Source of the DNA: a virus
Length of the DNA: 46,043 nucleotides
Reading direction: 5' to 3' (one strand)
Virus record (IMG/VR): IMGVR_UViG_3300025669_000006
How positions within the stretch are numbered: the stretch's first letter is position 1; every line of letters starts with the position of its first letter. The position numbers were made by a program, and so were the translations under genes. Positions 8,412 to 46,043 of this stretch are shown one piece after another. A model generated the notes under the pieces. It did not search any database. It was not told the origin of the DNA and saw only the letters and a list, made by a program, of their open reading frames with translations.

Positions 8412-9205
8412 GGCTTTGCCTCTGGCATGACTGGCTCCATCCAACATACAGGCACGACTGCTTCTCCGTTGTCCAAGTGCCATCCTCCACCCGAATGTGA
8501 ATGCTTGCGCGCGATGTCGTGATAGGGGCCACCACCTCTGTCGATAACAACCCATAGACGCTCGCCCGGTGGAGCCCATGACAGGCTATAGTTCCACGGC
8601 GAATTGTCGTATGCCTCAGTCTTGAACTGTGTCGATGCCTTGATTTCGTCCCGCACGGCTCGCAGCGCCCGTGCCGCTGCCCGTGTCGCTGCATCCATCG
8701 AGCCCGTATCTTCTTCGATAGAATCTATGTGCCGGTCCAAGATCTTAGCGGAGTCCTGGGCCTCCTGAGGGGCTTGCGACTCACTCTCTGAGCATCTGAG
8801 GCTTATCTGTCTTGCGACGCTTTCGGCGGTACGGTCTCCCCAATATTTCCACCGTTCATCTAACCCAGCCCACGCCTCGTGGTTGCGCTCTTTGAGTGGA
8901 TCAAGAAAAGCGTCCACAACAAACTCGCACATGTCTGCAATGAGCGAATGCCCCAGCTCGTGCGCAATTGTGACGCTCTGTTCTGCCTCTGGCAGTGTGA
9001 AGAAAGCGGTATGGACTCGGACTCTAACTTCCATCAAATGTGGGCTACAGAAGATGCTCGCCTGCCCGCTATCACCGTCTCTTGGGCCTTCGATGTGCGC
9101 GATTGCAACCCACCAAGGAAACAGACTCTTGTTCTCCTCGATGAGCTGGCGCACCCGCGCCTCTGCCTCTTGGTTCTTGAATCCAGAATAGTAAAACTTG
9201 ATCAT
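8408..9205 (-). CDS. HExxH zinc-metallopeptidase-like protein with a DUF551-like C-terminal tail (265 aa)
   Basis: TIAHELGHSL (HExxH). The C-terminal end VCWMEPVMPEAKP resembles DUF551 ends (memory, weak). Conserved leader gcttgtctcctgttgcttg lies in front of the ATG. Confidence 0.55.
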   Translation of the reverse strand: MIKFYYSGFKNQEAEARVRQLIEENKSLFPWWVAIAHIEGPRDGDSGQASIFCSPHLMEVRVRVHTAFFTLPEAEQSVTIAHELGHSLIADMCEFVVDAFLDPLKERNHEAWAGLDERWKYWGDRTAESVARQISLRCSESESQAPQEAQDSAKILDRHIDSIEEDTGSMDAATRAAARALRAVRDEIKASTQFKTEAYDNSPWNYSLSWAPPGERLWVVIDRGGGPYHDIARKHSHSGGGWHLDNGEAVVPVCWMEPVMPEAKP

Positions 9206-9229
9206 GCGCTTGTCTCCTGTTGCTTGTCT

Positions 9230-13943: not shown

Positions 13944-14275
13944 AACCTTAATCCTCCACGTTTTGCCGCCGCTATGACCTTAGATGCAACATACCGGCTT
14001 GGCGCTTTCAGTGGACCAAGCCCCTTGACCCGTGACTCTGCTGGCCGCATATTCTCCTCCACGCAGGTCTGCGCGTAATCCAGCGCGACCGCCTCGTCCC
14101 GCGTATCCCGGTTGGCCATATAGATCGTATAGACCTCGTCTGGGGCTCGGTGCATCACATCCACAAACCAGCGGCGGCCCGCGTCGTCCGGGTCTACCCG
14201 CGCCTCGATGTTGCCGTCGGTCTCCGATCTCACCTCGCCGCGCCAGGCGTTCGAGTGTGGTGTGGTGTCATTCAT
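13940..14275 (-). CDS. Hypothetical protein (111 aa)
   Basis: ATG 14275 overlaps the frame-A MTase stop within AAATGAATGA. Confidence 0.55.
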   Translation of the reverse strand: MNDTTPHSNAWRGEVRSETDGNIEARVDPDDAGRRWFVDVMHRAPDEVYTIYMANRDTRDEAVALDYAQTCVEENMRPAESRVKGLGPLKAPSRYVASKVIAAAKRGGLRL

Positions 14276-15407
14276 TTGGTGGCCTCTCTGTTTCGTGCTT
14301 CAGCACGTGCAATAAAACAGCATGCTGCTTTTGCCGCCACGATTGGGTGTACTCCGTTGCCACAGCCTCGAAGGCGGTCCACCCGATAGGCCAGCCCATC
14401 AGCCACTCGACGAAATTCGGGTTCAGCATCCGCGCCAGCTTCGGCTGCCATTCGGGTAAGCTCAGCAGCAGACGGTAGAGAAGGGGCAACCCATGCGTTA
14501 CGGCTAAGGACTTCGGCCCATGCACCTTTATCTCTTGGACCTGGTGGGAAAGGTCCGAGTCCTTCCGCTTGCCCGCGCTCAGCTTGTAGCCGTCTGCGCT
14601 CATCGGGGTGGGCCAGTGCTTCGCTTGGGACTCCAGCCCCACCGTCCGCTTGCCCGTTGCCGTCGCACCCTTTGCTGCTACCACTTCCGCTGACACACTG
14701 CGACCGCCGTTCGGCCAGTTCGGGGTCATCCACTGTGCCGCCTCCCCCGCCAGTGTCTTGCCGTGTCCGTTCCCGTGGCTCGGTGCGTTCCTCGTGGTCC
14801 TGTTCTCGTTGGCGCTGGCTCGGGGGGTTGGCCAAGTGCTCGCCGCACTCTGTAGTCCTGGTGTGTGCCTGTCCGCCTGTGATGGTCCGTCCGCCTTCGC
14901 ACAGTGCGCCGTCGCGGTAGGCAAGGATGAACAGTCGCTTGCGGAGGTGAGGCGCACCCACTTCAGCCGCGCTAAACAGTCCTGCTTCAACCCGGTAACC
15001 CATTCCTCGTAAGTCGGCTCTGACCTCTTCAAAGCCCAGTCTAATGTGGTTTGCGACGTTCTCGAAGAAACAGAGTCCTGGCTGTACCTCTGACACAATG
15101 CGTCGAACGTCGGGCCACAGGTGTCTCGGATCATCTGCGCCGCGTCGGCGACCGGCGACACTGAAGGGCTGGCATGGGTAGCCGCCAGAGACGATATCCA
15201 CCAAGCCGCGCCACGGTCTGCCGTCGAAGGTTTTGATATCGTCCCAGATAGGCGCGCTATCCATGGCCGAATCTTCCATCCGCGCCACGAGAGCAGCCGC
15301 TGCGTAGGCTTCCCGCTCGACGTAACCCACAGTTCGATATCCGTCCCCGAGGGCGAGGCTGATCCCGAGTTCGAGCCCGCCAATTCCTGCACATAAAGCC
15401 AAGCCAT
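14268..15407 (-). CDS. Co-extensive +1-frame ORF (frame B, 379 codons) inside the C5-MTase gene; candidate overprinted gene or recoding partner
   Basis: Open for 1140 nt, one nucleotide out of phase with frame A. Carries TWPTPRAS, HWPTPMSADG and LNPNFVEWLMGWPIGWT, motifs I associate (from memory) with phage methyltransferase-type proteins. See finding. Confidence 0.35.
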   Translation of the reverse strand: MAWLYVQELAGSNSGSASPSGTDIELWVTSSGKPTQRLLSWRGWKIRPWIARLSGTISKPSTADRGAAWWISSLAATHASPSVSPVADAAQMIRDTCGPTFDALCQRYSQDSVSSRTSQTTLDWALKRSEPTYEEWVTGLKQDCLARLKWVRLTSASDCSSLPTATAHCAKADGPSQADRHTPGLQSAASTWPTPRASANENRTTRNAPSHGNGHGKTLAGEAAQWMTPNWPNGGRSVSAEVVAAKGATATGKRTVGLESQAKHWPTPMSADGYKLSAGKRKDSDLSHQVQEIKVHGPKSLAVTHGLPLLYRLLLSLPEWQPKLARMLNPNFVEWLMGWPIGWTAFEAVATEYTQSWRQKQHAVLLHVLKHETERPPNE

Positions 15408-15411
15408 TCAT
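14272..15411 (-). CDS. dcm: DNA (cytosine-5)-methyltransferase (frame A)
   Basis: Motif I LCAGIGG, motif IV GGYPCQPFSVAG, motif VI FFENV, motif VIII GAPHLRKRLFILA, then FPPGP...W and RVDRLRGCGNGVHPIVA (motif X). Confidence 0.85.
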   Translation of the reverse strand: MNGLALCAGIGGLELGISLALGDGYRTVGYVEREAYAAAALVARMEDSAMDSAPIWDDIKTFDGRPWRGLVDIVSGGYPCQPFSVAGRRRGADDPRHLWPDVRRIVSEVQPGLCFFENVANHIRLGFEEVRADLRGMGYRVEAGLFSAAEVGAPHLRKRLFILAYRDGALCEGGRTITGGQAHTRTTECGEHLANPPSQRQREQDHEERTEPRERTRQDTGGGGGTVDDPELAERRSQCVSGSGSSKGCDGNGQADGGAGVPSEALAHPDERRRLQAERGQAEGLGPFPPGPRDKGAWAEVLSRNAWVAPSLPSAAELTRMAAEAGADAEPEFRRVADGLAYRVDRLRGCGNGVHPIVAAKAACCFIARAEARNREATK

Positions 15412-15469
15412 TTATTCTCCTTAATATTGACCCGTTTCACGTTGTGGGCTGTCAGTTTCAAGACCTGCA

Positions 15470-16246
15470 TTATTTGTCTCTCCTCTTTGGTAGACTTCTG
15501 TTGGACAACCACCACTCCCACATCTCTTCCCAAGAGTCGAAGCGCATTTTCATACTCCAATCGTCAGGGCGAGAGCTCCACAACCTGCGGAATGCACTAG
15601 CCCATGCGCGTTTATGTCCCGGCCACCGCACAAACTGTGCGTCGCGTCCGGCCTTTCGGGCCTGAGGGCATCCTATACATCCCAGGCGATCAAAGCCCTC
15701 GTCGTAGAGAGAGCAATATGGAGCGCTGTTGTCGCGGATAAACTCCCACACCCCCACCTGTGTCCAATGGAAGATGGGGTTGAGCACCAGTCCTCCACTT
15801 TTCCAGTGTGCCGACACCTCATCCCAGTCGCGTGCTCTGCGCCCCGATTCCTCGGCGCGGATCCCCATGAGCATTGACCGGCCATCTCGCGGATAACTGT
15901 GTTCTTTGAGTGCGGCACAGCACCAGCGCTGCTTGCGTGTAGGAAATCCCCTCTTAGGAAAGCTCTCGAAGAAGGACCGCTTCGGGCGCACAAACTCCAC
16001 ATCTGGGTGGTGCTGGCGGATAAACCTTGTCAACTCTGGTGGGTCTATACCTGTGGCGTTGTAATGCCAGTCTGCCTTGATTCCGCCCATGTCTGCCAAC
16101 GCCTTGATCACAACGGAGTCCTTGCCTCCCGAAAAACAGCCGTAGTAACCATCCTCAGGTTCGTACTCACGAAGCAGTGCGATAGCCTTCTCGACCTTCA
16201 TATTGTCTACCCTTTCCGTAGTGTCCGGCTCTTGCGTCCGGCTCAT
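15470..16246 (-). CDS. PAPS-reductase/PP-loop ATPase family protein (DndC/IbrA-like phage type)
   Basis: PP-loop CFSGGKDSVV, plus RWCC..LK and the C-terminal CIGCP cluster typical of phage PAPS-reductase-like proteins. Alternative start at ATG 16201. Confidence 0.8.
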   Translation of the reverse strand: MSRTQEPDTTERVDNMKVEKAIALLREYEPEDGYYGCFSGGKDSVVIKALADMGGIKADWHYNATGIDPPELTRFIRQHHPDVEFVRPKRSFFESFPKRGFPTRKQRWCCAALKEHSYPRDGRSMLMGIRAEESGRRARDWDEVSAHWKSGGLVLNPIFHWTQVGVWEFIRDNSAPYCSLYDEGFDRLGCIGCPQARKAGRDAQFVRWPGHKRAWASAFRRLWSSRPDDWSMKMRFDSWEEMWEWWLSNRSLPKRRDK

Positions 16247-16812: not shown

Positions 16813-17084
16813 GACCGGCCCTCTTCTTTGAACGCCTCGAACAGATCGGCCTGCCCTTCCTTCGCGCAAGCCACCCATGATGTCGAAGTCCGCAGTGAAA
16901 CTCTGCATACTTTGCGCGGACCAAACGCCGCGACCCCTTCCGCGAATAGAGAATACAGATACTGTGTTGCTTGGTACTTGTCGCAATCTCCGCCGATCTT
17001 GTCGGATATCTCGGCAGCCGTCAGAGGCTCCGCGCCTTTTCTAAGCATATCCAGAACCAATTGCTTCGTCTTGTCGCTTGCCAT
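16809..17084 (-). CDS. Small winged-helix DNA-binding protein candidate (91 aa)
   Basis: KQLVLDMLRKGAEPLTAAEISDKIG looks like a wHTH (MarR/Lrp style). Conserved leader precedes the ATG. Confidence 0.5.
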   Translation of the reverse strand: MASDKTKQLVLDMLRKGAEPLTAAEISDKIGGDCDKYQATQYLYSLFAEGVAAFGPRKVCRVSLRTSTSWVACAKEGQADLFEAFKEEGRS

Positions 17085-17198
17085 GTGCTTGTCTCCTTGT
17101 GGTTGGGTGCGGAGGTGTCCCGGATCGCCTTCGCGGCTGTGGGGTGTTCGGCGCGAAAAGGGTACGCCGTCCGGGATTCAGCCGTGGAACCCAAAGTC

Positions 17199-19051: not shown

Positions 19052-19447
19052 TTATTTCATTGCGTCTTGTTCAAGTGGCATGACGTTCACTGCGCGTATT
19101 GCCAGTAGCTGAGCTGGATTCTTTGCAGTCATGCCTTCGAAGCGATGGTCTATGTTCTCCAAAGTCCCGATCACGACGACCGGATCTCCTTTCTTGATGT
19201 TGGCCTCGACGAACTCCGCAACACGTCCATGCGCCGTCACCCGCATGTAGGTTGACTTCTGTCGCTGTTCGCCCTGTGCCGTCTTGTACGTCGAGTTCAC
19301 CGCGATCCTCAAATTCGCCACAGCCTGCCCTGCCGCAGTCATGGCCATGTCCGGATCCCTCACAAGGCGCGCTGCCACCCTGGCCTCATTCAGACGCGGC
19401 ATTCTCAGAATGCGATCACTTGGCGGCGGTAGTCTTCCGTCGTCCAT
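19052..19447 (-). CDS. ssb: Single-stranded DNA-binding protein
   Basis: OB-fold SSB pattern: LNEARVAARLVRDPDMAMTAAGQAVANLRIAVN...YMRVTAHGRVAEFVEANIKKGDPVVVIGTL. TAATG coupling to the ATPase gene. Alternative start at ATG 19402. Confidence 0.75.
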   Translation of the reverse strand: MDDGRLPPPSDRILRMPRLNEARVAARLVRDPDMAMTAAGQAVANLRIAVNSTYKTAQGEQRQKSTYMRVTAHGRVAEFVEANIKKGDPVVVIGTLENIDHRFEGMTAKNPAQLLAIRAVNVMPLEQDAMK

Positions 19448-20916
19448 TACTTGCGGCCCTTCTTTGCTTGCTTCGAAGCAATGATTGTCTGTGGTTCAAC
19501 ATGCTTGCCGTCGATTGCCACTACAGCCCCGTCCTGCATAACGATCCCGACATCCCCGGATTCGTCCACAATCTCCAGAACAAGCTGCAAGTCCGCAGCG
19601 TAGGCCATGTCTTGAATGGCTAGGAGAGATTCGGAGTCCAGTAGGTTGGCGCGTTGAATCCACATGGCTTTGAACGCGTGGTTCTTCGCGATCAGAATCG
19701 GCACGGTGAGCAAGATCTTCTCCGAGTCTGAGCACTCGGAGAACGGCGATCCGTTGTACCTACAGAACCCCGCATCGAAGTCGAACTCCAGCGCATCGGG
19801 AAGCTCTGAGTCCGCGACTATCACAGCCCTCTGTTTCTTGATGTCCTCCAGATCTTGCGTGCATATCTCGGATTCGTTGCCCTTCCTTTGGGCCTCATCG
19901 AGCATCGCTTCGCGTCGCGCATGATTCGCAGCGCGTTCGTTTGTTGCTTCCGCGCTCTTGATGTCCCCGCGCAATCCGCGCGCCTTCTCTTTGAGATCGC
20001 CTCGCACGTCCTCTCCCAAGACATAGCTCTGTATTTCCTTGACCTCTTTCGTGAGGGATTCGTTCTGTTCGAGGAGTGCCGCAATCTTGTCATTGTGATC
20101 TTTAATCTGTTTCCTGTGATAGCCGATTGAAAGGGTCTTCTGCTCGATGGCATCGCTCGCGACACGCGCGTCTTCTTCGGCCTGGTCTGATTGTGCAATC
20201 TTTTCCTCCATCTCCTCCATGACACGCAGCGTGTCGGCCACGTCTATCCGCGATGGTACATCGCCGGTCTCTTGCGGTAGTTCGCTGATCGCCCCGTCCA
20301 GTTTCTTCTTCTCCACGTTGATCGCGGTCCGCTTTGCGAACGTCATGTCGTACGCTTGCTCCAGCGCCTTGATTTCATCACTGCGCCCCGTCAGGCTCAA
20401 CAGCTCCTCCATGACCTTGGCGTCGGCCATCGTAACAATACGCGTCGGGTCAAATGCCGACCGCGTGCTCAGCGCATCAAGCACGTCCTGTGGTCTCTTG
20501 TAGGCAGTGTTCCCATCCACGGATCGGACTGTAAGCTCATGGCTTGTCTTGGTCATCACACGTCGAACAATCAGATCATCATCGCTTGGCTGATCTGGAT
20601 CTCCGAGCCGACCCTCCAAGACTGTTTGCTCGGTCCCTCGCTTACACGGGCTCTCTTTGGTTTGGTTGTAGCCCCGCGCGCCAGAAATCAAGAACCACAT
20701 CGCGTTTCCGAGGCTCGTTTTTCCTTCCTTGTTCTTGCCACAGATTTGCACTAGGTTGCGGTCCAGATGAATATCGACAGTGTTGATCTTCATGAAATTA
20801 CTGACATGAAGCTCCGTAACCCTGAGCCCCGATTCTCCGGCTTCAGGCACGTCGGCCTGAGCCTTCTGCGCGGCTTGCGCCGCCGCTTCCTTGAGTATGT
20901 CTTTCGTTGTTGTCAT
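19447..20916 (-). CDS. SMC/SbcC/RecF-like AAA ATPase (recombination-associated), 489 aa
   Basis: LHVSNFMKI...ICGKNKEGKTSLGNAM (Walker A), a long coiled-coil middle, and C-terminal LQLVLEIVDESG (Walker B-like). Start at ATG 20916, preceded by the conserved leader. Confidence 0.75.
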   Translation of the reverse strand: MTTTKDILKEAAAQAAQKAQADVPEAGESGLRVTELHVSNFMKINTVDIHLDRNLVQICGKNKEGKTSLGNAMWFLISGARGYNQTKESPCKRGTEQTVLEGRLGDPDQPSDDDLIVRRVMTKTSHELTVRSVDGNTAYKRPQDVLDALSTRSAFDPTRIVTMADAKVMEELLSLTGRSDEIKALEQAYDMTFAKRTAINVEKKKLDGAISELPQETGDVPSRIDVADTLRVMEEMEEKIAQSDQAEEDARVASDAIEQKTLSIGYHRKQIKDHNDKIAALLEQNESLTKEVKEIQSYVLGEDVRGDLKEKARGLRGDIKSAEATNERAANHARREAMLDEAQRKGNESEICTQDLEDIKKQRAVIVADSELPDALEFDFDAGFCRYNGSPFSECSDSEKILLTVPILIAKNHAFKAMWIQRANLLDSESLLAIQDMAYAADLQLVLEIVDESGDVGIVMQDGAVVAIDGKHVEPQTIIASKQAKKGRK

Positions 20917-20935
20917 TTGCTTGTCCCTTGTTCGT

Positions 20936-21262
20936 TCAGTCACCCAATACAGAGCCAGCAGCGACATTGCGCCGCCGGCAAACGATAAACCATTCCTTAA
21001 GCCGTGGCTCGTCTCTCATAATCAATCTGGCATACAGCGGGCAGTAAACATTTGGCATGTGGCACTGTGCGCCGCGCAGCACGCGCACTAGCTCGTATGG
21101 CAGCCGCACTCCGCACTTCAATACACCGCGGTCCTTGAGTCTCAGCGCCTCTTTCACAATGCCTGCGTAGACCTCCGGATGCGCTGCGTGAAACGCGAAG
21201 AATTTGCGCTCAAGCGGGTCTGTGGAGTCTTTGTCCATGCCGGGAAGGTGTGCTTGTCCCAT
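20936..21262 (-). CDS. Hypothetical protein (108 aa)
   Basis: First gene after promoter 21286-21312. The start region AUGGGACAAGCAC is complementary to the candidate sRNA loop. Confidence 0.55.
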   Translation of the reverse strand: MGQAHLPGMDKDSTDPLERKFFAFHAAHPEVYAGIVKEALRLKDRGVLKCGVRLPYELVRVLRGAQCHMPNVYCPLYARLIMRDEPRLKEWFIVCRRRNVAAGSVLGD

Positions 21263-21285
21263 TTGCTTGCCCTTTCATTTTCGAC

Positions 21286-21315: not shown

Positions 21316-21729
21316 CTACTTTGCGCGTTCCGCCGCAACCCTGAGATCCGAAGGCGGGCCGCCTGGCAACCCGGCCAGAAGATCGCAGAAAGCCTCCTCC
21401 GTGCTCATCCGCGCCGGAACATGTCCATGCTTATCCATCCCAAGGGTGTGGTCTAAATTCCTTCTAATCGCCTGGTCTGAAACGGCATCCAATCTGCCAC
21501 GAAACCAAGCCAACGAAAGCGTTGACTCCATCGTGTATGAACTCGGAAGTTTTGAACCATTCCAAAGGGATTTGTACCCTTGCCAATACTCCGAATACTT
21601 CGGTCTGCCACACTTCAGCTGCATCGCTATTGAAGCCTTTAGCGCGCAGAAGATAGCGCTGCAAAGAATCCCGAGCGCGACGCCCACGCCCATCTGATTC
21701 GCCTCTATGAACTCCTTCAAATACTCCAT
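21316..21729 (-). CDS. Membrane protein, hypothetical (137 aa)
   Basis: N-terminal TM segment MGVGVALGILCSAIFCALKASIA. GGAG RBS. Confidence 0.55.
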   Translation of the reverse strand: MEYLKEFIEANQMGVGVALGILCSAIFCALKASIAMQLKCGRPKYSEYWQGYKSLWNGSKLPSSYTMESTLSLAWFRGRLDAVSDQAIRRNLDHTLGMDKHGHVPARMSTEEAFCDLLAGLPGGPPSDLRVAAERAK

Positions 21730-21752
21730 TCTGTGCTCCTTTATTTTGTCGC

Positions 21753-21781
21753 TTGACGCTTGATACTTGCAATGCTATGAT
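21753..21781 (+). promoter_or_regulatory. Sigma70-like promoter on the plus strand (the only convincing plus-strand signal in the genome)
   Basis: TTGACG (21753-21758), a 17-nt spacer, then TATGAT (21776-21781). Confidence 0.6.
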
Positions 21782-21787
21782 CTTGAT

Positions 21788-21870
21788 TCGCCCTTAGTTC
21801 GTGCTTGTCCTGAGGGCTTTTCGAATCGCCGCCATCTGGTCTCCCCGACCATGGCGGCGATTCTCTTTTT
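21788..21870 (+). ncRNA. Candidate ~83-nt small RNA (promoter to intrinsic terminator), two hairpins
   Basis: Hairpin 1: 21790-21797 pairs with 21810-21817 (8 bp, one G-U), with a 12-nt loop uucgugcuuguc. Hairpin 2 is the terminator. No ORF. Bounded by promoter 21753-21781 and the U-tract. Confidence 0.5.
21823..21870 (+). terminator. Rho-independent terminator (plus strand only)
   Basis: Perfect 13-bp stem: gaatcgccgccat (21823-21835) with atggcggcgattc (21851-21863). It is followed by tcttttt. On the minus strand the hairpin is followed by gaaaag, so there is no U-tract in that direction. Confidence 0.7.
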
Positions 21871-21889
21871 GCCCTCTTAGTTCCGGATT

Positions 21890-21926
21890 CTCTACTATAG
21901 ATCTAATTAGATCTATCGTAGTAGAG
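21890..21926. repeat. Large palindrome (candidate operator or origin element)
   Basis: Perfect 18-bp palindrome tagatctaattagatcta (21898-21915), flanked by ctctacta and tagtagag arms with a 3-nt bulge. Contains two GATC / AGATCT sites. Confidence 0.85.
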
Positions 21927-21938
21927 AGGTGCAAAATC

Positions 21939-22071
21939 AGTGGATAACCGATCTAAGTGTCGTGTCTTCAACTGTTTAGGCCTGTTGATAACTTGTGGAT
22001 AGAATGTTTAGAACGTCTCAATGCAAATTTCAGCTTCGAGTTATCAACAAGTTTTCCACCGGTTATCAACA
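21939..22071. promoter_or_regulatory. Cluster of five DnaA-box-like 9-mers (candidate replication origin or DnaA-responsive region)
   Basis: Each box matches TTATCCACA at 8 of 9 positions. 21939-21947 (rc TTATCCACT). 21983-21991 (rc TTATCAACA). 21994-22002 (rc CTATCCACA). 22041-22049 (TTATCAACA). 22063-22071 (TTATCAACA). Confidence 0.5.
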
Positions 22072-22605
22072 CCCTGTTTTCTTACTCCCTGCCGTTCCTG
22101 GAGGCCGTAATAGCGCCTCCAAGGCGGCATGCATTTCATCTGTCGTAATAGGCCCCTGTGTCTTTGTGGGGTGGGGCTCGGGCGCACTGTCAAGCGTTGC
22201 CACGCGCTGCATCGTGGCACGAAGCTGGTCGTCCATTCGGGCGCGCAGCGGCTCTTGCGTTGCGCATGACGCCTCCAGTCGCCGCATCCTATCTGCCATC
22301 ACTTCAACGCCTATCGTGTTGCGTCCAACCTGCTCACATAGCACAGTTACCGTCGAAGAAGCCACGCAACGCGATAGTTCTAGTTTCCGAATCCTGGCGT
22401 CGATGTCTTTACTTAGCTTATCGGCATTGCTCTCTAGGGAGTTGATTCTAACGAAGATTGACTTGATCTGGGAGGTATGGAGCCGCTGTATCTTTTCGCT
22501 TAGTGTGTATGCCAGTATCAAGCCATCGATCCTGGCGTCGATGTCTTTCCACCCGATCCACTTCTTTGCTCGGTTCCAAATTGACTTCTTGTTTTTCTTC
22601 ATCAT
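22066..22605 (-). CDS. Coiled-coil protein, hypothetical (179 aa)
   Basis: Start at ATG 22605, just after the upstream stop. Internal duplicated KDIDARI(D/R) encoded by a ~20-bp direct repeat at about 22391-22412 and 22528-22550. Confidence 0.55.
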   Translation of the reverse strand: MMKKNKKSIWNRAKKWIGWKDIDARIDGLILAYTLSEKIQRLHTSQIKSIFVRINSLESNADKLSKDIDARIRKLELSRCVASSTVTVLCEQVGRNTIGVEVMADRMRRLEASCATQEPLRARMDDQLRATMQRVATLDSAPEPHPTKTQGPITTDEMHAALEALLRPPGTAGSKKTGC

Positions 22606-24509: not shown

Positions 24510-24577
24510 TTTGCTTGTCTCCTTGTTGCTTGCCTCTTTCGTCTATCGACGCCCTGTCTATGTGAGATGATTGGGGT

Positions 24578-25182: not shown

Positions 25183-25275
25183 TTGCTTGTCTCCTTGGTT
25201 GCTTGCCTTGTTTCAAATCTAATAGAATCATACGCGAAAATCGAACAGAAGTCAAGCGATTTTCAAACATAATTT
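25183..25275 (-). repeat. Promoter-plus-leader cassette, copy 2 (about 90% identical to 27810-27901)
   Basis: Read directly. The shared string runs from the UP-like tract through -35, spacer, -10 and 5-prime UTR (attagatttgaaacaaggcaagcaac.aaggagacaagca) to the ATG. Confidence 0.9.
25227..25255 (-). promoter_or_regulatory. Early sigma70-like promoter 2
   Basis: Minus strand reads TTGACT (25255-25250), a 17-nt spacer, then TATGAT (25232-25227). AT-rich aaattatgtttgaaaatcgc lies upstream. Confidence 0.7.
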
Positions 25276-25534
25276 ATCCCGACATGATGGCTAAAACCTC
25301 TATCCTTCGCCTGTCAGGATACGTGTAGATCGCCACCGGCTTCCCGTCTTCGCAATGATCCCATGTCTCTACGCCGCCCCGGTCTTCGGTCTGGAAGTCA
25401 CACCACTCCTCGTACTGCGCCGCCTCGCCTGGAACGTCGGCGACACGGAAGACGCATTCGCACGAGATGGTGTCTGGATCTTTGAGGTCGTAGTAGGACA
25501 GTGCCAGGTACTCTCGCAGCGCTTGCTCGCTCAT
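25274..25534 (-). CDS. Hypothetical protein (86 aa)
   Basis: Start at ATG 25534 in an ATGA overlap with the Dam-like stop. The track's longer version overlaps Dam. Confidence 0.5.
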   Translation of the reverse strand: MSEQALREYLALSYYDLKDPDTISCECVFRVADVPGEAAQYEEWCDFQTEDRGGVETWDHCEDGKPVAIYTYPDRRRIEVLAIMSG

Positions 25535-26154
25535 ATAACAACCCCCTCTTTCCACTTCCACAGCCGCGTGACGGCTGGTGCGTCCCAGTCCTTCTTTGGC
25601 CCGTAGTGGTATGAGCAGCCTTCTCTGTTGTTTCCGGTCTGCTTGATGCCGTGCGCATTCCAATATTCTAGCAGCTCCGTGGGCGGGATGTACTCTGGCC
25701 GGGGTCTCATCTTCCGATGTTCCGATGCGTTGATGTACGCGTATTCATACCACTCCTGCGAAGCCCCCACGAGCCCTAGCACCACGACGGTAGTGCCGAG
25801 TTCTCTGGCGGTCCGCGCTGCGCGAATGTGCCACGGCATAGGATCTGAGAAGCCTGGATTGCAGAAGCAATTCAAAGGCGGGCCTATGGCACTTCCTGCC
25901 ATGCCGTTCGCTGGAATGTCGTTCCCCCACACATCTAGATCCAGCGCGTTGGTTGCCAACCGAGATCCTGGGCCGTAGAAGTAGGGACATTTCTTGTTGG
26001 TTGCGTTCGCCGAAACGTCGAGTCCGAAGTGAACCTCATTGTCGAGCTGGCGGAAGATTTCGGGCGGCGTCTCCCACTCTTGGCGCAACGCCTTGGTTGA
26101 ATACACGATCCCGTCGAGCATGAATTCGTCCGGGTTGGGCTTCGTGTTACTCAT
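25531..26154 (-). CDS. dam: Phage Dam-type DNA N6-adenine methyltransferase with a variant catalytic motif (NPGF)
   Basis: QEWETPPEIFRQLDNEVHFGLDVSANATNKKCPYF matches the phage N6A-MTase family start (W.TP..lf..l...f.f.lD.aa...N). The catalytic tetrad reads CNPGFS instead of NPPY/F. Confidence 0.7.
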   Translation of the reverse strand: MSNTKPNPDEFMLDGIVYSTKALRQEWETPPEIFRQLDNEVHFGLDVSANATNKKCPYFYGPGSRLATNALDLDVWGNDIPANGMAGSAIGPPLNCFCNPGFSDPMPWHIRAARTARELGTTVVVLGLVGASQEWYEYAYINASEHRKMRPRPEYIPPTELLEYWNAHGIKQTGNNREGCSYHYGPKKDWDAPAVTRLWKWKEGVVI

Positions 26155-26860: not shown

Positions 26861-26895
26861 GGTGCTTGTCTCCTTTTTGCTTGCCCTCACCTCGC

Positions 26896-27086: not shown

Positions 27087-27809
27087 TTACCATTGGCGCC
27101 CTCCTGCGGTTGCCACGGCACTTAGCGCCTCCTTCCACTGTGCCAAGAAGTCTAGCGCGTGATCGTCCATTCCCTCAATTTCATCCTCGCTCAACGCGGC
27201 CCACTCGGAAAGCGCATGAAGCTCGCACCCGATTTCCATGTGATCATCTAAAATCATGACCGGCCATCGGAGGCCGTACACGAATATGGGCTGGCGCTCC
27301 ATTGTGGCGTCGCCATACGTAGCGCCCGTGAGGACGGCGCCCGTGAGGTCGGCGCCCGTGAGGACTGCGCCCGTGAGGTCGGCGTCCCTGAGGTCGGCGT
27401 GCGTGAGGACTGCGCCCGTGAGGACTGCGCCCGTGAGGTCGGCGCCCGTGAGGTCGGCGTCCCTGAGGACGGTGTGCGTGAGGACTGCGCCCCTAAGGAC
27501 TGCGCCTCTGAGGACTGCGCCCGCGAGGTCGGTGCGCGTGAGGACTGCGTCCCTGAGGACTGCGCCCGCGAGGACTGCGTCCCTGAGGTCGGCGCCCGTG
27601 AGGTCGGCGTGCGTGAGGTCGGCGTCCCTGAGGTCGGCGTGCGTGAGGACGGCGCCCCTGAGGTCGGCGCCCGTGAGGTCGGCGTGCGTGAGGTCGGCGT
27701 CCCTGAGGACTGCGCGTGCCTTACCAGCCTCTTCGACTACTTCTCGCACTGTGTTTGCTGTTTCTGATGAGAATAAAACGCCTCCATCTAGCTTCCTGAT
27801 CTCTTTCAT
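27087..27809 (-). CDS. Pentapeptide-repeat protein (about 26 consecutive A(D/V)LXX units) with a globular C-terminal domain; first gene of early operon 1
   Basis: AVLRD ADLTH ADLTG ADLRG AVLTH ... is continuous for ~135 aa. Start at ATG 27809, preceded by the conserved leader. The track ORF extends to 27869, into the promoter. Confidence 0.9.
   Translation of the reverse strand: MKEIRKLDGGVLFSSETANTVREVVEEAGKARAVLRDADLTHADLTGADLRGAVLTHADLRDADLTHADLTGADLRDAVLAGAVLRDAVLTRTDLAGAVLRGAVLRGAVLTHTVLRDADLTGADLTGAVLTGAVLTHADLRDADLTGAVLTGADLTGAVLTGATYGDATMERQPIFVYGLRWPVMILDDHMEIGCELHALSEWAALSEDEIEGMDDHALDFLAQWKEALSAVATAGGRQW
27309..27713 (-). repeat. 15-bp-periodic coding repeat (pentapeptide repeat region)
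   Basis: Units such as gtgaggtcggcgccc and gtgaggactgcgccc are reiterated about 27 times. Confidence 0.9.
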
Positions 27810-27901
27810 GCTTGTCTCCTTTGTTGCTTGCCTTGTTTCAAATCTAATGCAAGTATACTCGATAATCAAACAGAAGTCAAGCGATTTTCAAACATAATTT
27901 T
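27810..27901 (-). repeat. Promoter-plus-leader cassette, copy 1 (about 90% identical to 25183-25275)
   Basis: See copy 2. Confidence 0.9.
27852..27880 (-). promoter_or_regulatory. Early sigma70-like promoter 1
   Basis: Minus strand reads TTGACT (27880-27875), a 17-nt spacer, then TATACT (27857-27852). It has the same UP-like tract as promoter 2. Confidence 0.7.
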
Positions 27902-27986: not shown

Positions 27987-28029
27987 GGGAAAAAAGGGTG
28001 CCGCGCCTGGGTGAGGCGCCAGGCGCGGC
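27987..28029 (-). terminator. Rho-independent terminator closing the late (structural/lysis) operon
   Basis: Minus strand reads GCCGCGCCTGG, an 8-nt loop, CCAGGCGCGGC, then acccTTTTTTccc. It lies 44 nt after the stop of 28073..28405. Confidence 0.75.
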
Positions 28030-32444: not shown

Positions 32445-33836
32445 CTATTGGTCCGAAAACGTTGCAGCCATGTCTATAACCGCATGCAAAACCGAAGGCG
32501 CACGCATTCGCCATCGCCCAAAACCACCAAGATAGAAGTCGTGAAACCAATAGGGTTCTATTAGATCTGGGTATGGGTATGGCTGTGGTATCACAACTGG
32601 AGAAAATGGCCCCGTATACTTAAACGGGTACCTTTCAAGAAATGTGCCTGACTCAGACAACCAAGAGGTCAGATGCAATGAAACCGTGATTGTCGTGATC
32701 TCTTGCGGGTGACTAAAGTCGATAGACTCCACCGTCTCTGGAGTATCATCCCCGGCGGGCAACACAATGTACTTTTTTGTTTCGTAGCTCTCGTAACCTT
32801 CAGGCAAATTGCCAAGATGGTCTCTGGTCGGTCCGTGTGTCATTTCCAGATTTACTGGCAGTCGCAAGTTCTGTGTCTGCTTTTCAGTGCTTCCAATCAG
32901 GCTGACTACCTCCCCTCCCAAAGAAACCGCCGCCACATCGAACAACACAGAGCTGCTTTCAATCTTCTGAACATCCCATTCGTATACGATTGGGAACACC
33001 GTTCTCTCTGTCTCGTGCCTCAAAAATGATGGGGATGTCCCCCCTTCGGGGAACGCTCCGAATAGGCTGATGCCCACATAGGAATCCACCTCACAGCGCC
33101 CTGGTGTCTCTTCTAGCGTTAGGCTTTTTCGATCAAATGCCTCCCATGCCTTCATGTCGAAGGATCCGTCCGTGTCGAGGCGGAGTTCATTTCCTTGCGG
33201 CGGGTCATCAAGCACGATCCATTCCGGAAATGGGGTTGGAAAAGGAAAGTGGATCGGGAATGGGCCTTCATTGGACTGGTTGAAATCATCAAGCGCCGGG
33301 TATGTGATGAACTCCCTATTGCGCGGTTGGACGTGTCCTGGGATGTCAACGAATCTATACCGCAGCAGATTCAGAATGTCACGCGCTACAACCCATGGCC
33401 TGTAGTCCTGCCATGACCGCGTATTGTTGTAGAAGTAATTGATGTCGATGTCTTCGCCCCACCTGGCGTAAACAGCCGACACGTCTACTGGGATGCGTTC
33501 GGTTGTGGCAGACGGATCGGTGAATCTTGGTATCAGCTGTCCTATTGCGACCCCCAGTCTGCCGAGGTTCCTTCGCAGCGCATACGAGATGGGATCGTGA
33601 TACGTGAAAGGACCGACGAGCGGAAAGCCGGCCATGTCTCCCTCGGTTGGATAATACTTTTCGCCCGTCTCGTCTGCATTTATAAGCCACAGTGTCTGAG
33701 GGCTTCCGTTAATAAGCTCTTCCCGTTCGTTGACGGCTCTAGCCAAAGCCACAAATATCGACATCAGGTCTTCATCTTCTGGCTGAAGGCGATTCATCCG
33801 CACTTCACTCCAGTTTCCAGCAAACGGCCACGGCAT
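32445..33836 (-). CDS. Tail-tip/baseplate-associated hypothetical protein (463 aa)
   Basis: Follows the Tal-like gene with a 2-nt gap. No motif recognised. Confidence 0.5.
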   Translation of the reverse strand: MPWPFAGNWSEVRMNRLQPEDEDLMSIFVALARAVNEREELINGSPQTLWLINADETGEKYYPTEGDMAGFPLVGPFTYHDPISYALRRNLGRLGVAIGQLIPRFTDPSATTERIPVDVSAVYARWGEDIDINYFYNNTRSWQDYRPWVVARDILNLLRYRFVDIPGHVQPRNREFITYPALDDFNQSNEGPFPIHFPFPTPFPEWIVLDDPPQGNELRLDTDGSFDMKAWEAFDRKSLTLEETPGRCEVDSYVGISLFGAFPEGGTSPSFLRHETERTVFPIVYEWDVQKIESSSVLFDVAAVSLGGEVVSLIGSTEKQTQNLRLPVNLEMTHGPTRDHLGNLPEGYESYETKKYIVLPAGDDTPETVESIDFSHPQEITTITVSLHLTSWLSESGTFLERYPFKYTGPFSPVVIPQPYPYPDLIEPYWFHDFYLGGFGRWRMRAPSVLHAVIDMAATFSDQ

Positions 33837-44883: not shown

Positions 44884-46043
44884 CTATGCTCCTATCGTCT
44901 GCGGTTCTGGCAGGTCTATCCCACCGCCAGAGAGCGTGCCGGTCTTCTCTCCATCGTAGTCAATCCACGTCACGCCGCTCTCTACCTCATCCAGTTCAAG
45001 TCCGACGGCCACGCCGCTCTCTGTTACCTCCGCCAGTGTGCCGCTGCTATACATGGCGGATACTCGCATGATTACGTATACTGTAGCGCCTGTTGTGTTC
45101 GCCCACGAGACGCTAAGATTCTGTTCGTTGGTGTTGCCTATGAAGTCGTCCGAGTCAAGTACAGCACCTCCGTAGTGCATGAGTAACTGTAGCCCAGCCG
45201 TCATGCTCGCATCACTCATTGTGCCGACTAGCGTAGCAAGTACGGTTGTGCCTGTCGGGACTGAATAGATAATTTGTCGGTATGCCGGAAATGCTGCATC
45301 TTCGCATGTGTGCGTAAAATTACCTGAGCCAGTAGCACGGGCCGTCTCGCCCCCTGCGGTTCTTGCGGATAGCGCGCCAGCTACACCGCCGTCGTTGGCC
45401 ACTTCGTTATATGTATGGCCTGTATATGCACTGGTACACTCTCGCCATTTTATGCCTGTGCCGAAGGTTAGACCAGTGGCCAGAACTTGCCTAACTCGGC
45501 GAAAATGATATGAATTGCCCCCGAAGGCTCCGCCCCCTATCGTGTTGGCGTCGCACTGGTACAGGCCGACGGAGCAGCCGCTCGGCGAGCATGTGGTGAT
45601 TGCGTTCGCGTGGCAGCCGTACAGGCCGCGGGGGCAGCCGCTCGGCGAGCATGTGGTGATTGTATTCGCGTCGCAGGCGTACAGGCCGCTGGTGCAGCCG
45701 CTCGGCGAGCATGTGGTGATTGTATTCGCGTCGCAATAGATCAGGCCGCTGGAGCAGCCGCTCGGCGAGCATGTGGTGATTGTATTCGCGACGCAGGCGC
45801 ACAGGCCGCGGTCAAAATTGCGAACGCCTAAGCTGAGCACGCTGCCTGTAACGCTGTGAAGCCCATACGTGCCAGAGTCCGTCACTCCGGTCAGCATGAT
45901 ATTGCGCGACACCAAACTAACCTTAGAACCAATCACCTTAGTGGCTGCGAGTCCAGCGTCAAGTGTGACATAGGAACCTCCGCCATCGTTGCCCGTGTTC
46001 ACTATCGCAAACTCTTCGCTTACCCTGGTAGCTGCATTGTCTA
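44884..46043 (-). CDS. Beta-helix/tail-fibre-like protein, C-terminal segment of the junction-spanning gene (45917-46043 duplicates 1-127)
   Basis: The ORF stays open upstream of the listed GTG (46002) to the window edge and continues at 127..620. It contains 4.5 Cys-rich 20-aa repeats. Confidence 0.7.
   Translation of the reverse strand, partial: DNAATRVSEEFAIVNTGNDGGGSYVTLDAGLAATKVIGSKVSLVSRNIMLTGVTDSGTYGLHSVTGSVLSLGVRNFDRGLCACVANTITTCSPSGCSSGLIYCDANTITTCSPSGCTSGLYACDANTITTCSPSGCPRGLYGCHANAITTCSPSGCSVGLYQCDANTIGGGAFGGNSYHFRRVRQVLATGLTFGTGIKWRECTSAYTGHTYNEVANDGGVAGALSARTAGGETARATGSGNFTHTCEDAAFPAYRQIIYSVPTGTTVLATLVGTMSDASMTAGLQLLMHYGGAVLDSDDFIGNTNEQNLSVSWANTTGATVYVIMRVSAMYSSGTLAEVTESGVAVGLELDEVESGVTWIDYDGEKTGTLSGGGIDLPEPQTIGA
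45541..45810 (-). repeat. Tandem 60-bp coding repeat, 4.5 copies
   Basis: Units 45541-45600, 45601-45660, 45661-45720 and 45721-45780, plus a half unit. They share ...gcagccgctcggcgagcatgtggtgattgtattcgcg... and encode C(D/H)AN(T/A)ITTCSPSGCxxGL(Y/I)x. Confidence 0.95.
45917..46043. repeat. Terminal redundancy, right copy (identical to 1-127)
   Basis: Same as the left copy. A 127-bp length is typical of an assembler k-mer overlap (inference). Confidence 0.95.

Follow-up and report, generated by a model that had tools for sequence, protein, structure and literature searches.

A candidate plus-strand small RNA of an uncultured freshwater phage has a loop complementary to a motif at the phage's own start codons

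Why does a phage whose recognizable genes all lie on one strand carry a promoter and a terminator on the other, and what might the RNA between them do? The question is raised by positions 21753-21870 of a 46,043-nucleotide (nt) stretch of DNA (the window, IMG/VR record IMGVR_UViG_3300025669_000006) that derives from an uncultured phage in a freshwater metagenome (ENA ERZ27315536, contig k141_564873). A first-pass annotation, made from the letters alone, had read this interval as an orphan transcription unit for a small RNA whose hairpin loop is antisense to the leaders of many phage genes. It proposed a trans-acting regulator of those genes or, alternatively, a cis-acting antisense or primer RNA at the adjacent origin-like region. 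Judged from sequence comparisons, the interval is likely a genuine plus-strand small RNA gene, and an antisense regulatory function of some kind is probable. The complementarity between the loop and the leaders is far beyond chance, and it may be functional.

A transcription unit that faces the phage genes

The putative unit comprises the following features.

21753-21758, plus strand: -35 hexamer TTGACG, found by consensus scan and unchanged in all relatives
21773-21781, plus strand: extended -10 element TGcTATGAT, with the hexamer TATGAT at 21776-21781, after a 17-nt spacer from the -35
21788-21870, plus strand: predicted RNA of ~83 nt, with the 5' end (21786-21789) placed by promoter spacing and the 3' end by the U tract
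21790-21817, plus strand: 5' hairpin predicted by folding, 8 bp including one U-G, with arms GCCCUUAG and CUGAGGGC and a 12-nt loop
21798-21809, plus strand: the loop, UUCGUGCUUGUC, extended as the loop/seed UUCGUGCUUGUC(C) to 21810 and complementary to GGACAAGCACGAA
21823-21870, plus strand: intrinsic terminator, a perfect 13-bp stem (arms 21823-21835 and 21851-21863) with a 4-5-bp upper stem
21864-21870, plus strand: terminator U tract, UCUUUUU, the T run being on the plus strand only

The promoter matches the consensus at 10 of 12 positions and has the upstream TG. Only four sites in the whole window score at least 10/12, and this is the only one on the plus strand; the other three (27880, 25255 and 5572) are on the minus strand ahead of genes. 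The -35 context TCGCTTGAC is common to the small RNA promoter and two early minus-strand promoters. A GATC overlaps the 3' end of the -10 element. Control of the promoter by Dam methylation at GATC was considered and rejected: the genome has 249 GATC sites versus 168 expected, so the site is not depleted, and the spacer is not enriched in it.

At the other end of the unit, the minus strand past the terminator stem reads CGAAAAGCCC, with no T run, so the hairpin works as a terminator rightward only. The first-pass annotation had described the TTGACG-17-TATGAT promoter at 21753-21781, the one-directional 13-bp terminator hairpin with its UCUUUUU, and the 5' hairpin at 21790-21817 with its 12-nt loop; all three are present as described. 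Its remark that the protein genes are all on the minus strand holds for the recognizable genes of the window.

An 85-nt fold of the predicted RNA reaches -44.9 kcal/mol (z = -7.9), and none of 200 shuffled sequences was as stable. The loop is unpaired in both the minimum-energy and centroid folds, except for a weak 2-bp inner stack. No Rfam family matched at its gathering score over the whole window, and a relaxed Rfam search of 21650-22100 (E up to 10) returned nothing but a chance microRNA match.

Conservation in a sister lineage

Relatives were sought through protein searches, a metagenome scan, IMG/VR (by flanking proteins, protein alignment, loop 20-mers and leader pattern) and GTDB. Across all collections searched, only one sister lineage was recovered (L2: L003-L006 and L008-L018), to be compared with the lineage of the window itself (L1: the window with L001, L002 and L007). 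The GenBank phage collection, searched at the DNA level, had no match, and neither the two flanking proteins, nor protein alignment, nor two loop-containing 20-mers found a relative in IMG/VR. The sole IMG/VR match to the leader pattern, L020, was discarded because that contig has 67% GC and its copy of the pattern falls within a gene. L019 was also rejected: its ATPase is 29% identical, but it is an unrelated phage without the motif described below. GTDB genomes gave no match by 20-mer or protein alignment, and thus no prophage copy.

DNA identity between L1 and L2 is 67-80% in genes, 70% over the whole spacer and 79.8% over the predicted RNA; it is the whole spacer that is conserved, not the RNA alone. 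The -35, TG and -10 elements and their spacing are kept in L2, while the sequence of the promoter spacer varies. The 12-nt loop has no change in any of the 7 distinct sequences among the relatives. Around it, 3 of the 8 pairs of the first hairpin differ between the lineages (GC to UG, CG to AU, UG to CG), each with its pairing intact. The terminator stem has two UA to CG changes, one AU to GU and one GC to GU. RNAalifold places 26 pairs, none broken except for one gap-placement artefact, and all 7 variable stem pairs stay paired. It counts 2 of these changes as double-sided, both in the terminator, and 3 are one-sided to or from G-U; with an ungapped register in the first hairpin the double-sided changes rise to 4, of which the two in that hairpin depend on one gap placement.

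These substitutions also indicate the strand. The plus strand folds better, at -44.9 versus -41.6 kcal/mol in L1 and -45.4 versus -38.4 kcal/mol in L2, because the G-U pairs of the plus-strand RNA become A-C mismatches in a minus-strand RNA. A structure of the minus-strand RNA was accordingly rejected as the conserved element, being 3-7 kcal/mol less stable. Three single-base indels separate the lineages across the RNA element, which excludes a conserved open reading frame (ORF) across it. The ORFs that do occur there, of 48 amino acids (aa) on the plus strand and 46 aa on the minus strand, are not conserved, and gene callers list an 81- or 101-aa ORF at the locus in only some sister contigs.

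A small plus-strand RNA is thus very probably made, given that promoter, loop and pairing are conserved in the sister lineage. The first-pass annotation had asked of relatives whether the loop is conserved and whether the hairpins covary. The loop is unchanged and every stem substitution in L2 keeps its pair, and the orphan transcription unit that it proposed retains its promoter, loop and both hairpins there, with G-U pairs that are valid only in a plus-strand RNA.

The L2 RNA has, in addition, a second GUGCUUGU(C/U) copy 5 nt past the first. This second anti-leader copy occurs in L003-L018 (for example at 8430-8520 of L009), reads GUGCUUGUC or GUGCUUGUU, and occupies the 3' arm of the first hairpin and the linker; its counterpart in the window, GGGCUUUUC, is degenerate. 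On our reading of the sequences, the spacing of the two copies in L2 would mirror that of the pair of leader elements on either side of the Shine-Dalgarno sequence.

A motif repeated at minus-strand starts

The 8-mer TGCTTGTC, contained in the loop, occurs 9 times on the plus strand and not once on the minus strand, where ~0.7 copies per strand are expected. One copy is the RNA loop and the other eight are at minus-strand start regions. Read in the sense of the genes, its complement GACAAGCA is the commonest 8-mer in start regions (7 of 57), above any Shine-Dalgarno 8-mer. The sites are as follows.

27809-27848, minus strand: 5' untranslated region (UTR), or leader, of the first early gene, ATTAGATTTGAAACAAGGCAAGCAACAAAGGAGACAAGC-ATG, with the motif GACAAGCA at 27809-27816, an upstream element at 27824-27832 and the promoter at 27880-27852
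26862-26885, minus strand: leader of a 123-aa gene (start 26860), GGGCAAGCAAAAAGGAGACAAGCAC-cATG, with a 9-nt loop match (plus strand GTGCTTGTC)
25184-25223, minus strand: leader of a 128-aa gene (start 25182), the second copy of a leader cassette, with the motif at 25184-25191 and the promoter at 25255-25227
24512-24534, minus strand: leader of the Erf gene (start 24509), GGCAAGCAACAAGGAGACAAGCA-aaATG, with the exact 8-mer
21250-21271, minus strand: start of a 108-aa gene (ATG 21262), GGGCAAGCAA-ATG-GGACAAGCAC, with a 10-nt match GTGCTTGTCC in codons 2-4
20918-20926, minus strand: motif GGACAAGCA one base before ATG 20916 of an AAA/SMC-like ATPase (plus strand TGCTTGTCC)
17085-17093, minus strand: motif GACAAGCAC directly before the ATG of a 91-aa gene (start 17084; plus strand GTGCTTGTC)
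9208-9228, minus strand: leader of a 265-aa gene (start 9205), GACAAGCAACAGGAGACAAGCG-cATG, with the exact 8-mer upstream and a start-side copy with one mismatch

The sites at 24512, 25184, 27809 and 9221 are exact copies of TGCTTGTC. An upstream element, GGCAAGCAA, precedes the Shine-Dalgarno sequence at five of the motif starts, and has 5 copies on the coding strand and none on the opposite one. The typical leader, GGCAAGCAA(C)-N-AAGGAGACAAGCA(C)-N(0-3)-ATG, is found at 27809, 26860, 25182 and 24509 (Erf), while the starts at 17084 and 20916 have the proximal half alone. Most motif leaders belong to starts that have a gap before them, at which ribosomes have to begin anew. A 92-nt cassette of promoter and 5' UTR is duplicated with 91% identity (25184-25275 and 27809-27900) ahead of different early genes.

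Most of the sites in the first-pass annotation (21250, 17085, 26862, 20918, 24512 and 25184) are right, whereas its 27811 should be 27809 and the copy at 9221 had been overlooked. Its placement of the motif between the Shine-Dalgarno sequence and the AUG is mostly correct; the exceptions are 21250, where the motif follows the ATG, and 9221, which lies 23 nt upstream of the start at 9205, the ATG-adjacent copy there being GACAAGCG. The shared leader motif itself stands, as a strand-specific sequence and the top start-region 8-mer, and it is kept at orthologous L2 starts while the flanks diverge. The L2 Erf start is GACAAGCACG-ATG, a 10-nt match that can also be read as GAGAAGGAGACAAGCACG-ATG. 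In L2, the 108-aa gene starts with GGACAAGCAC-ATG-GTACAAGCAC; the 108-aa, ATPase (489 aa) and 95-aa genes have the leader AAAGGACAAGCAC-ATG; and the ortholog of the 91-aa gene has GGACAAGCAC-ATG.

The motif also bears on gene calling. The SMC/AAA_23-like ATPase is listed at 19447-20967 with 506 aa, and its true start is probably ATG 20916, giving 489 aa, because the leader motif lies there and the sister lineage has a 489-aa call. A start at 20916 would remove the overlap with the 108-aa gene.

Complementarity between the loop and the leaders

The complement of the loop, GGACAAGCACGAA, is the union of the leader variants. Of the 57 start regions, 11 have a contiguous Watson-Crick match to the loop of at least 8 nt; for 2000 shuffled loops the average was 0.94 such regions and the highest count 10. 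Seven or eight of these 11 sites abut the start codon. Matches are 8-10 nt long at 7-8 starts of the window and 10-11 nt long at orthologous L2 starts. Duplex energies computed in L2 for the loop only are bimodal: six starts fall between -17.7 and -19.4 kcal/mol and the other 13 between -7.4 and -14.5 kcal/mol. The L2 RNA is predicted to form a duplex of -34.1 kcal/mol with the first early 5' UTR.

The trans-acting regulon of the first-pass annotation thus fares unevenly: motif enrichment and conservation speak for it, whereas co-fold energies compared with shuffled loops, given below, are equivocal.

Overlap with the early mRNA and an origin-like neighborhood

The small RNA gene would also lie in the path of a minus-strand transcript.

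21730-21787, minus strand: Shine-Dalgarno sequence and 5' UTR of a 137-aa gene (ATG 21729), overlapping the small RNA promoter

The Shine-Dalgarno sequence of this gene is 11-16 nt from the small RNA -35. Between 22066 and 21729 a consensus scan found no minus-strand promoter of at least 9/12 and no minus-strand terminator, so the mRNA of the 137-aa, 108-aa, ATPase and SSB genes would have to come from upstream and cross the RNA gene. Such read-through, as deduced from the layout, would make the RNA cis-antisense, convergent with the mRNA and fully complementary to it over ~83 nt. The first-pass annotation had held cis-antisense or primer action in reserve. The cis part is, from this layout, at least as well grounded as the trans part; the primer part is weakened by the terminator, which precedes the AT-rich element.

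Beyond the terminator lies an origin-like block (21880-22075) that is conserved in the sister lineage and flanked by replication and recombination genes. Allowing at most 1 mismatch, 5 of the 10 genome-wide matches to the DnaA box TTATCCACA fall within 133 bp (21939-22071), in inverted arrays, where ~5 would be expected in the whole 46 kb. A near-perfect palindrome of 30-38 bp with two GATC sites occupies 21889-21927. The RNA terminator is ~20 bp from the palindrome and ~70 bp from the DnaA-box cluster. It would be unusual for a tailed phage to recruit host DnaA, as these sequences suggest that this one does.

A separate repeated sequence, ATTAGATYT, has 5 copies versus 0.29 expected. They are in the palindrome arms (21899-21914), in the +1 regions of early promoters (25215-25223 and 27840-27848) and at 32560-32568. 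This distribution suggests a common operator of a DNA-binding regulator that would link the early promoters and the palindrome.

How the RNA might act

We favor, at somewhat short of even confidence, a combined model in which the RNA is an antisense repressor in both cis and trans. Host sigma-70 RNA polymerase would transcribe it from the strong extended -10 promoter, against all phage protein genes, and would stop at the intrinsic terminator just short of the DnaA-box and palindrome region. Repression would be exerted through the 12-nt apical loop of the 5' hairpin. In cis, the crossing early mRNA (137-aa, 108-aa, SMC-like ATPase and SSB) would be fully complementary to the RNA, and its own complementary hairpin would show GACAAGCACGAA in the loop, fit for loop-loop kissing, with duplex formation, cleavage or transcriptional interference as the outcome. 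In trans, the loop would pair over 8-10 nt (10-11 nt in L2) with (G)GACAAGCA(C) between the Shine-Dalgarno sequence and the AUG, where the motif would overlap the Shine-Dalgarno end at seven or eight starts, mostly of first cistrons of the early and replication region; 30S binding would be blocked, and the early gene set would be shut off as the RNA accumulates. RNA production, read-through, pairing in vivo and repression as the direction of the effect are all terms that we infer from sequence. Taken on its own, the trans action, in which an anti-leader riboregulator pairs with the start motif of first cistrons and shuts off a gene set at translation initiation, is a tentative proposal.

Several observations weigh against this account. 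Consensus scans for promoters and terminators return site counts that are not above shuffled expectation. The sister U tract is short (CAUUUUG), and with only two lineages there are few independent compensatory events. When the cost of opening the first hairpin is charged, co-folding in the window gives 10 starts with an energy change (ddG) of -6 kcal/mol or lower, and shuffled loops average 6.4 such starts and reach as many as 19. Duplex energies for the 16-nt seed region likewise have a heavy background of U/C-rich pairing with ribosome-binding sites; the background of the energy tests is high because any U/C-rich loop pairs with purine-rich ribosome-binding sites. Within a 12-nt loop, 9-10 bp cannot form without strain or stem opening. 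The minus strand of the locus is itself leader-like (GACAAGCAC-CTCAG-GACAAGCAC in L2 and CAGGACAAGCACGAAC in L1), so the match of loop and leader may be inherited from a leader cassette rather than selected. Loop and motif give no covariation signal, because both are unchanged between the two lineages. Finally, the A/C-rich leader could simply be a strong ribosome-binding cassette that several starts have in common through duplication, of which one 92-nt copy pair is seen.

The main rival is that the RNA is real but acts in cis only, in the manner of OOP or a plasmid countertranscript, on the mRNA that crosses the spacer, the leader match being a relic of a reversed leader cassette. Duplex formation, RNase III cleavage or interference between convergent transcripts would then tune the 137-aa gene and the replication genes downstream. 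The layout would force the overlap, with the Shine-Dalgarno sequence close to the -35 and no minus-strand promoter or terminator found in the spacer; the L2 minus strand has the leader-like two-element unit; trans targets did not reach significance in the energy test on the window; and the 5' stem-loop followed by a terminator, the strong constitutive promoter and the position beside the origin and replication genes match known cis-antisense RNAs. We nevertheless regard a role confined to cis as unlikely. An RNA of this kind needs neither a loop that stays fixed while 3 of the 8 stem pairs change, nor a second anti-leader copy with leader-like spacing, and the motif is independently conserved at orthologous starts. 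The position of the unit also invites a role in replication, as a primer or R-loop former or through activation or insulation of the origin. Promoter-dependent origins are known in T7, T4 and ColE1, the conserved block with its palindrome and five-box DnaA cluster is close by, and replication and recombination genes flank it. However, the strong terminator would free the RNA before the AT-rich element, nearly all of the RNA is held in two stable hairpins, which is poor for an R-loop, and a polymerase moving toward the origin would build up positive supercoils in front of it. For OOP RNA, too, a primer role was at one time suggested, and it was later disproved. Origin-associated transcription would leave the unchanged loop and its match to the start motif unexplained, and we consider it improbable.

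The remaining alternative is that no stable plus-strand RNA exists and that the promoter-like site and the repeats are features of the DNA or of the minus strand. They might form an origin structure or protein-binding palindromes, or a hairpin in the mRNA that presents the leader motif to an RNA-binding factor or nuclease, the motif then being a translational enhancer or a protein-binding site. Scan counts within shuffled expectation fit this, as do conservation that spans the whole spacer, the placement of the minus-strand motif within the loop of a hairpin in the read-through mRNA, and the precedent of the start-associated sequence (SAS) of Cluster K mycobacteriophages, for which the authors allowed either a protein or an RNA as partner. 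It has few prospects, in our view, against the following evidence. On the minus strand the change from G-U to A-C costs 3-7 kcal/mol, and the T run is on the plus strand only. The -35, TG, -10 and spacing are conserved while the promoter spacer varies, and the compensatory changes in both hairpins fit RNA pairing.

Genome setting

The rest of the window is that of a tailed phage, with 56% G+C. Besides ERZ27315536, the source environments are represented by the freshwater assemblies ERZ23486368/ERZ23486390, ERZ890953 and JGI 3300031227. An exact 127-bp terminal repeat (1-127 = 45917-46043), reflecting either overlap in a circular assembly or terminal redundancy, leaves a unit genome of 45,916 bp. 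The recognizable minus-strand genes are arranged as follows.

46-29 kb, minus strand: tape measure and tail genes (protein family scans)
28000-28029, minus strand: strong intrinsic terminator, 11 bp (10 of them G-C) then TTTTTT, which parts the tail block from the early promoter at 27880
27.9 kb to ~14 kb, minus strand: early and replication region (protein family scans)
Below ~14 kb, minus strand: terminase, head morphogenesis and major head genes (protein family scans)

The terminator at 28000-28029 separates late from early transcription. The early and replication region encodes a pentapeptide-repeat protein, Dam-like methylases, Erf, RusA, a helix-turn-helix protein, the SMC-like ATPase, SSB and a PAPS-reductase-like protein. 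Protein scans that covered part of the ORFs turned up no integrase and no repressor, and no plasmid-maintenance or lysogeny genes were detected; the element is a tailed phage. Its terminase is at most 34% identical to that of any cultured phage, which leaves host and family unassignable. The one-strand rule is not absolute in this phage group, since the early region of some sister genomes, L010 (5772-6458) and L012 (5697-6458), includes a gene of 228-253 aa that runs the other way.

Some further genes deserve mention. The first early gene (27087-27809, minus strand) encodes a 240-aa protein with ~25-35 tandem 15-nt (pentapeptide) repeats, which may be a DNA mimic or anti-defence protein; Pfam Pentapeptide matches in sister contigs are to a nearby early gene that is not orthologous to it. 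A PAPS-reductase-like protein (phrog_424) adjoins a 379-aa DNA methyltransferase-like protein (14268-16246, minus strand), and a Dam-like methylase is encoded at 25531-26154. The three may constitute a DNA-modification module. A 337-aa ORF at 44884-45897 holds four tandem 60-nt repeats, 70-87% identical, at 45539-45838.

Relation to known systems

The candidate RNA resembles phage and plasmid antisense RNAs and, by its sequence, appears to match no described family. Its closest counterparts in layout are lambda OOP and P22 sar, which are likewise ~70-80 nt long, have their own sigma-70 promoter and intrinsic terminator, oppose an early operon beside replication genes or an origin, and would be expected to pair with the overlapping early mRNA. 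Unlike them, the window RNA covers neither a coding end nor a single ribosome-binding site but lies in a non-coding spacer, and it has no sequence or Rfam relationship to them; only its loop matches a motif repeated at many starts.

Plasmid countertranscripts such as R1 CopA, ColE2 RNAI and pMV158 RNAII are antisense RNAs encoded in the leader of the rep mRNA. The window RNA would be similar in being short and constitutively expressed, with a 5' kissing stem-loop followed by a terminator hairpin, and in its placement within the inferred leader of a replication mRNA beside the origin-like region, and it is similar in having YUNR-type tetranucleotides (UUCG and CUUG) in its loop. It differs in belonging to a tailed phage, in having no recognized Rep initiator among its downstream genes, and in showing no evident copy-number role.

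T4 RegA and RegB are proteins, a repressor and an endonuclease, that shut off early translation through start-region motifs. The joint silencing of early mRNAs proposed here is comparable, whereas the effector in the window would be a base-pairing RNA. The PeSL cassettes of T4-type phages, consisting of a promoter and an early stem-loop, are reportedly mobile, placed ahead of early genes and without a known antisense partner. The 92-nt promoter-leader cassette of the window is duplicated in a similar way, although its leaders have no stem-loop. The c4 RNA of P1 and P7 and the CI RNA of P4 share with the window RNA the principle of phage antisense RNA loops complementary to repeated sites near a ribosome-binding site. 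They are processed from the target's own transcript and act within one operon, whereas the window RNA has its own promoter on the opposite strand and candidate targets spread over ~19 kb.

The phage small RNAs described to date target either a single overlapping gene of the phage (OOP, sar, c4 and aQ) or host mRNAs (PreS, VpdS and DicF). Neither a 2025 review of phage small RNAs nor text searches of the literature yielded an RNA aimed at a motif repeated over the phage's own starts.

The motif itself is best compared with the SAS of Cluster K mycobacteriophages, a 13-bp consensus (GGGATAGGAGCCC) found 3-7 bp upstream of start codons, whose partner, RNA or protein, has been left open since 2011. 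In both cases a short asymmetric motif stands in one orientation near the starts of a mostly non-structural gene subset, is conserved across subgroups despite differing flanks, and often has a second upstream element. The SAS GGGATAGGAGCCC spans the Shine-Dalgarno sequence, whereas in the window GACAAGCA(C) follows it and GGCAAGCAA precedes it. The host group is different, and the window genome itself encodes a candidate RNA partner. Because the same genome holds both the motif and its candidate partner, and the second lineage has kept the two, the question becomes directly testable, for example with a loop mutant in which GUGCUUGUC is replaced by GUGGAAGUC. Should the trans action prove true, the RNA would be an RNA equivalent of T4 RegA and the first identified partner for an SAS-type motif. 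If the cis role alone holds, it would still represent a new phage antisense RNA family at an origin-like region, in a group without cultured relatives. The finding links two phenomena that were formerly separate.

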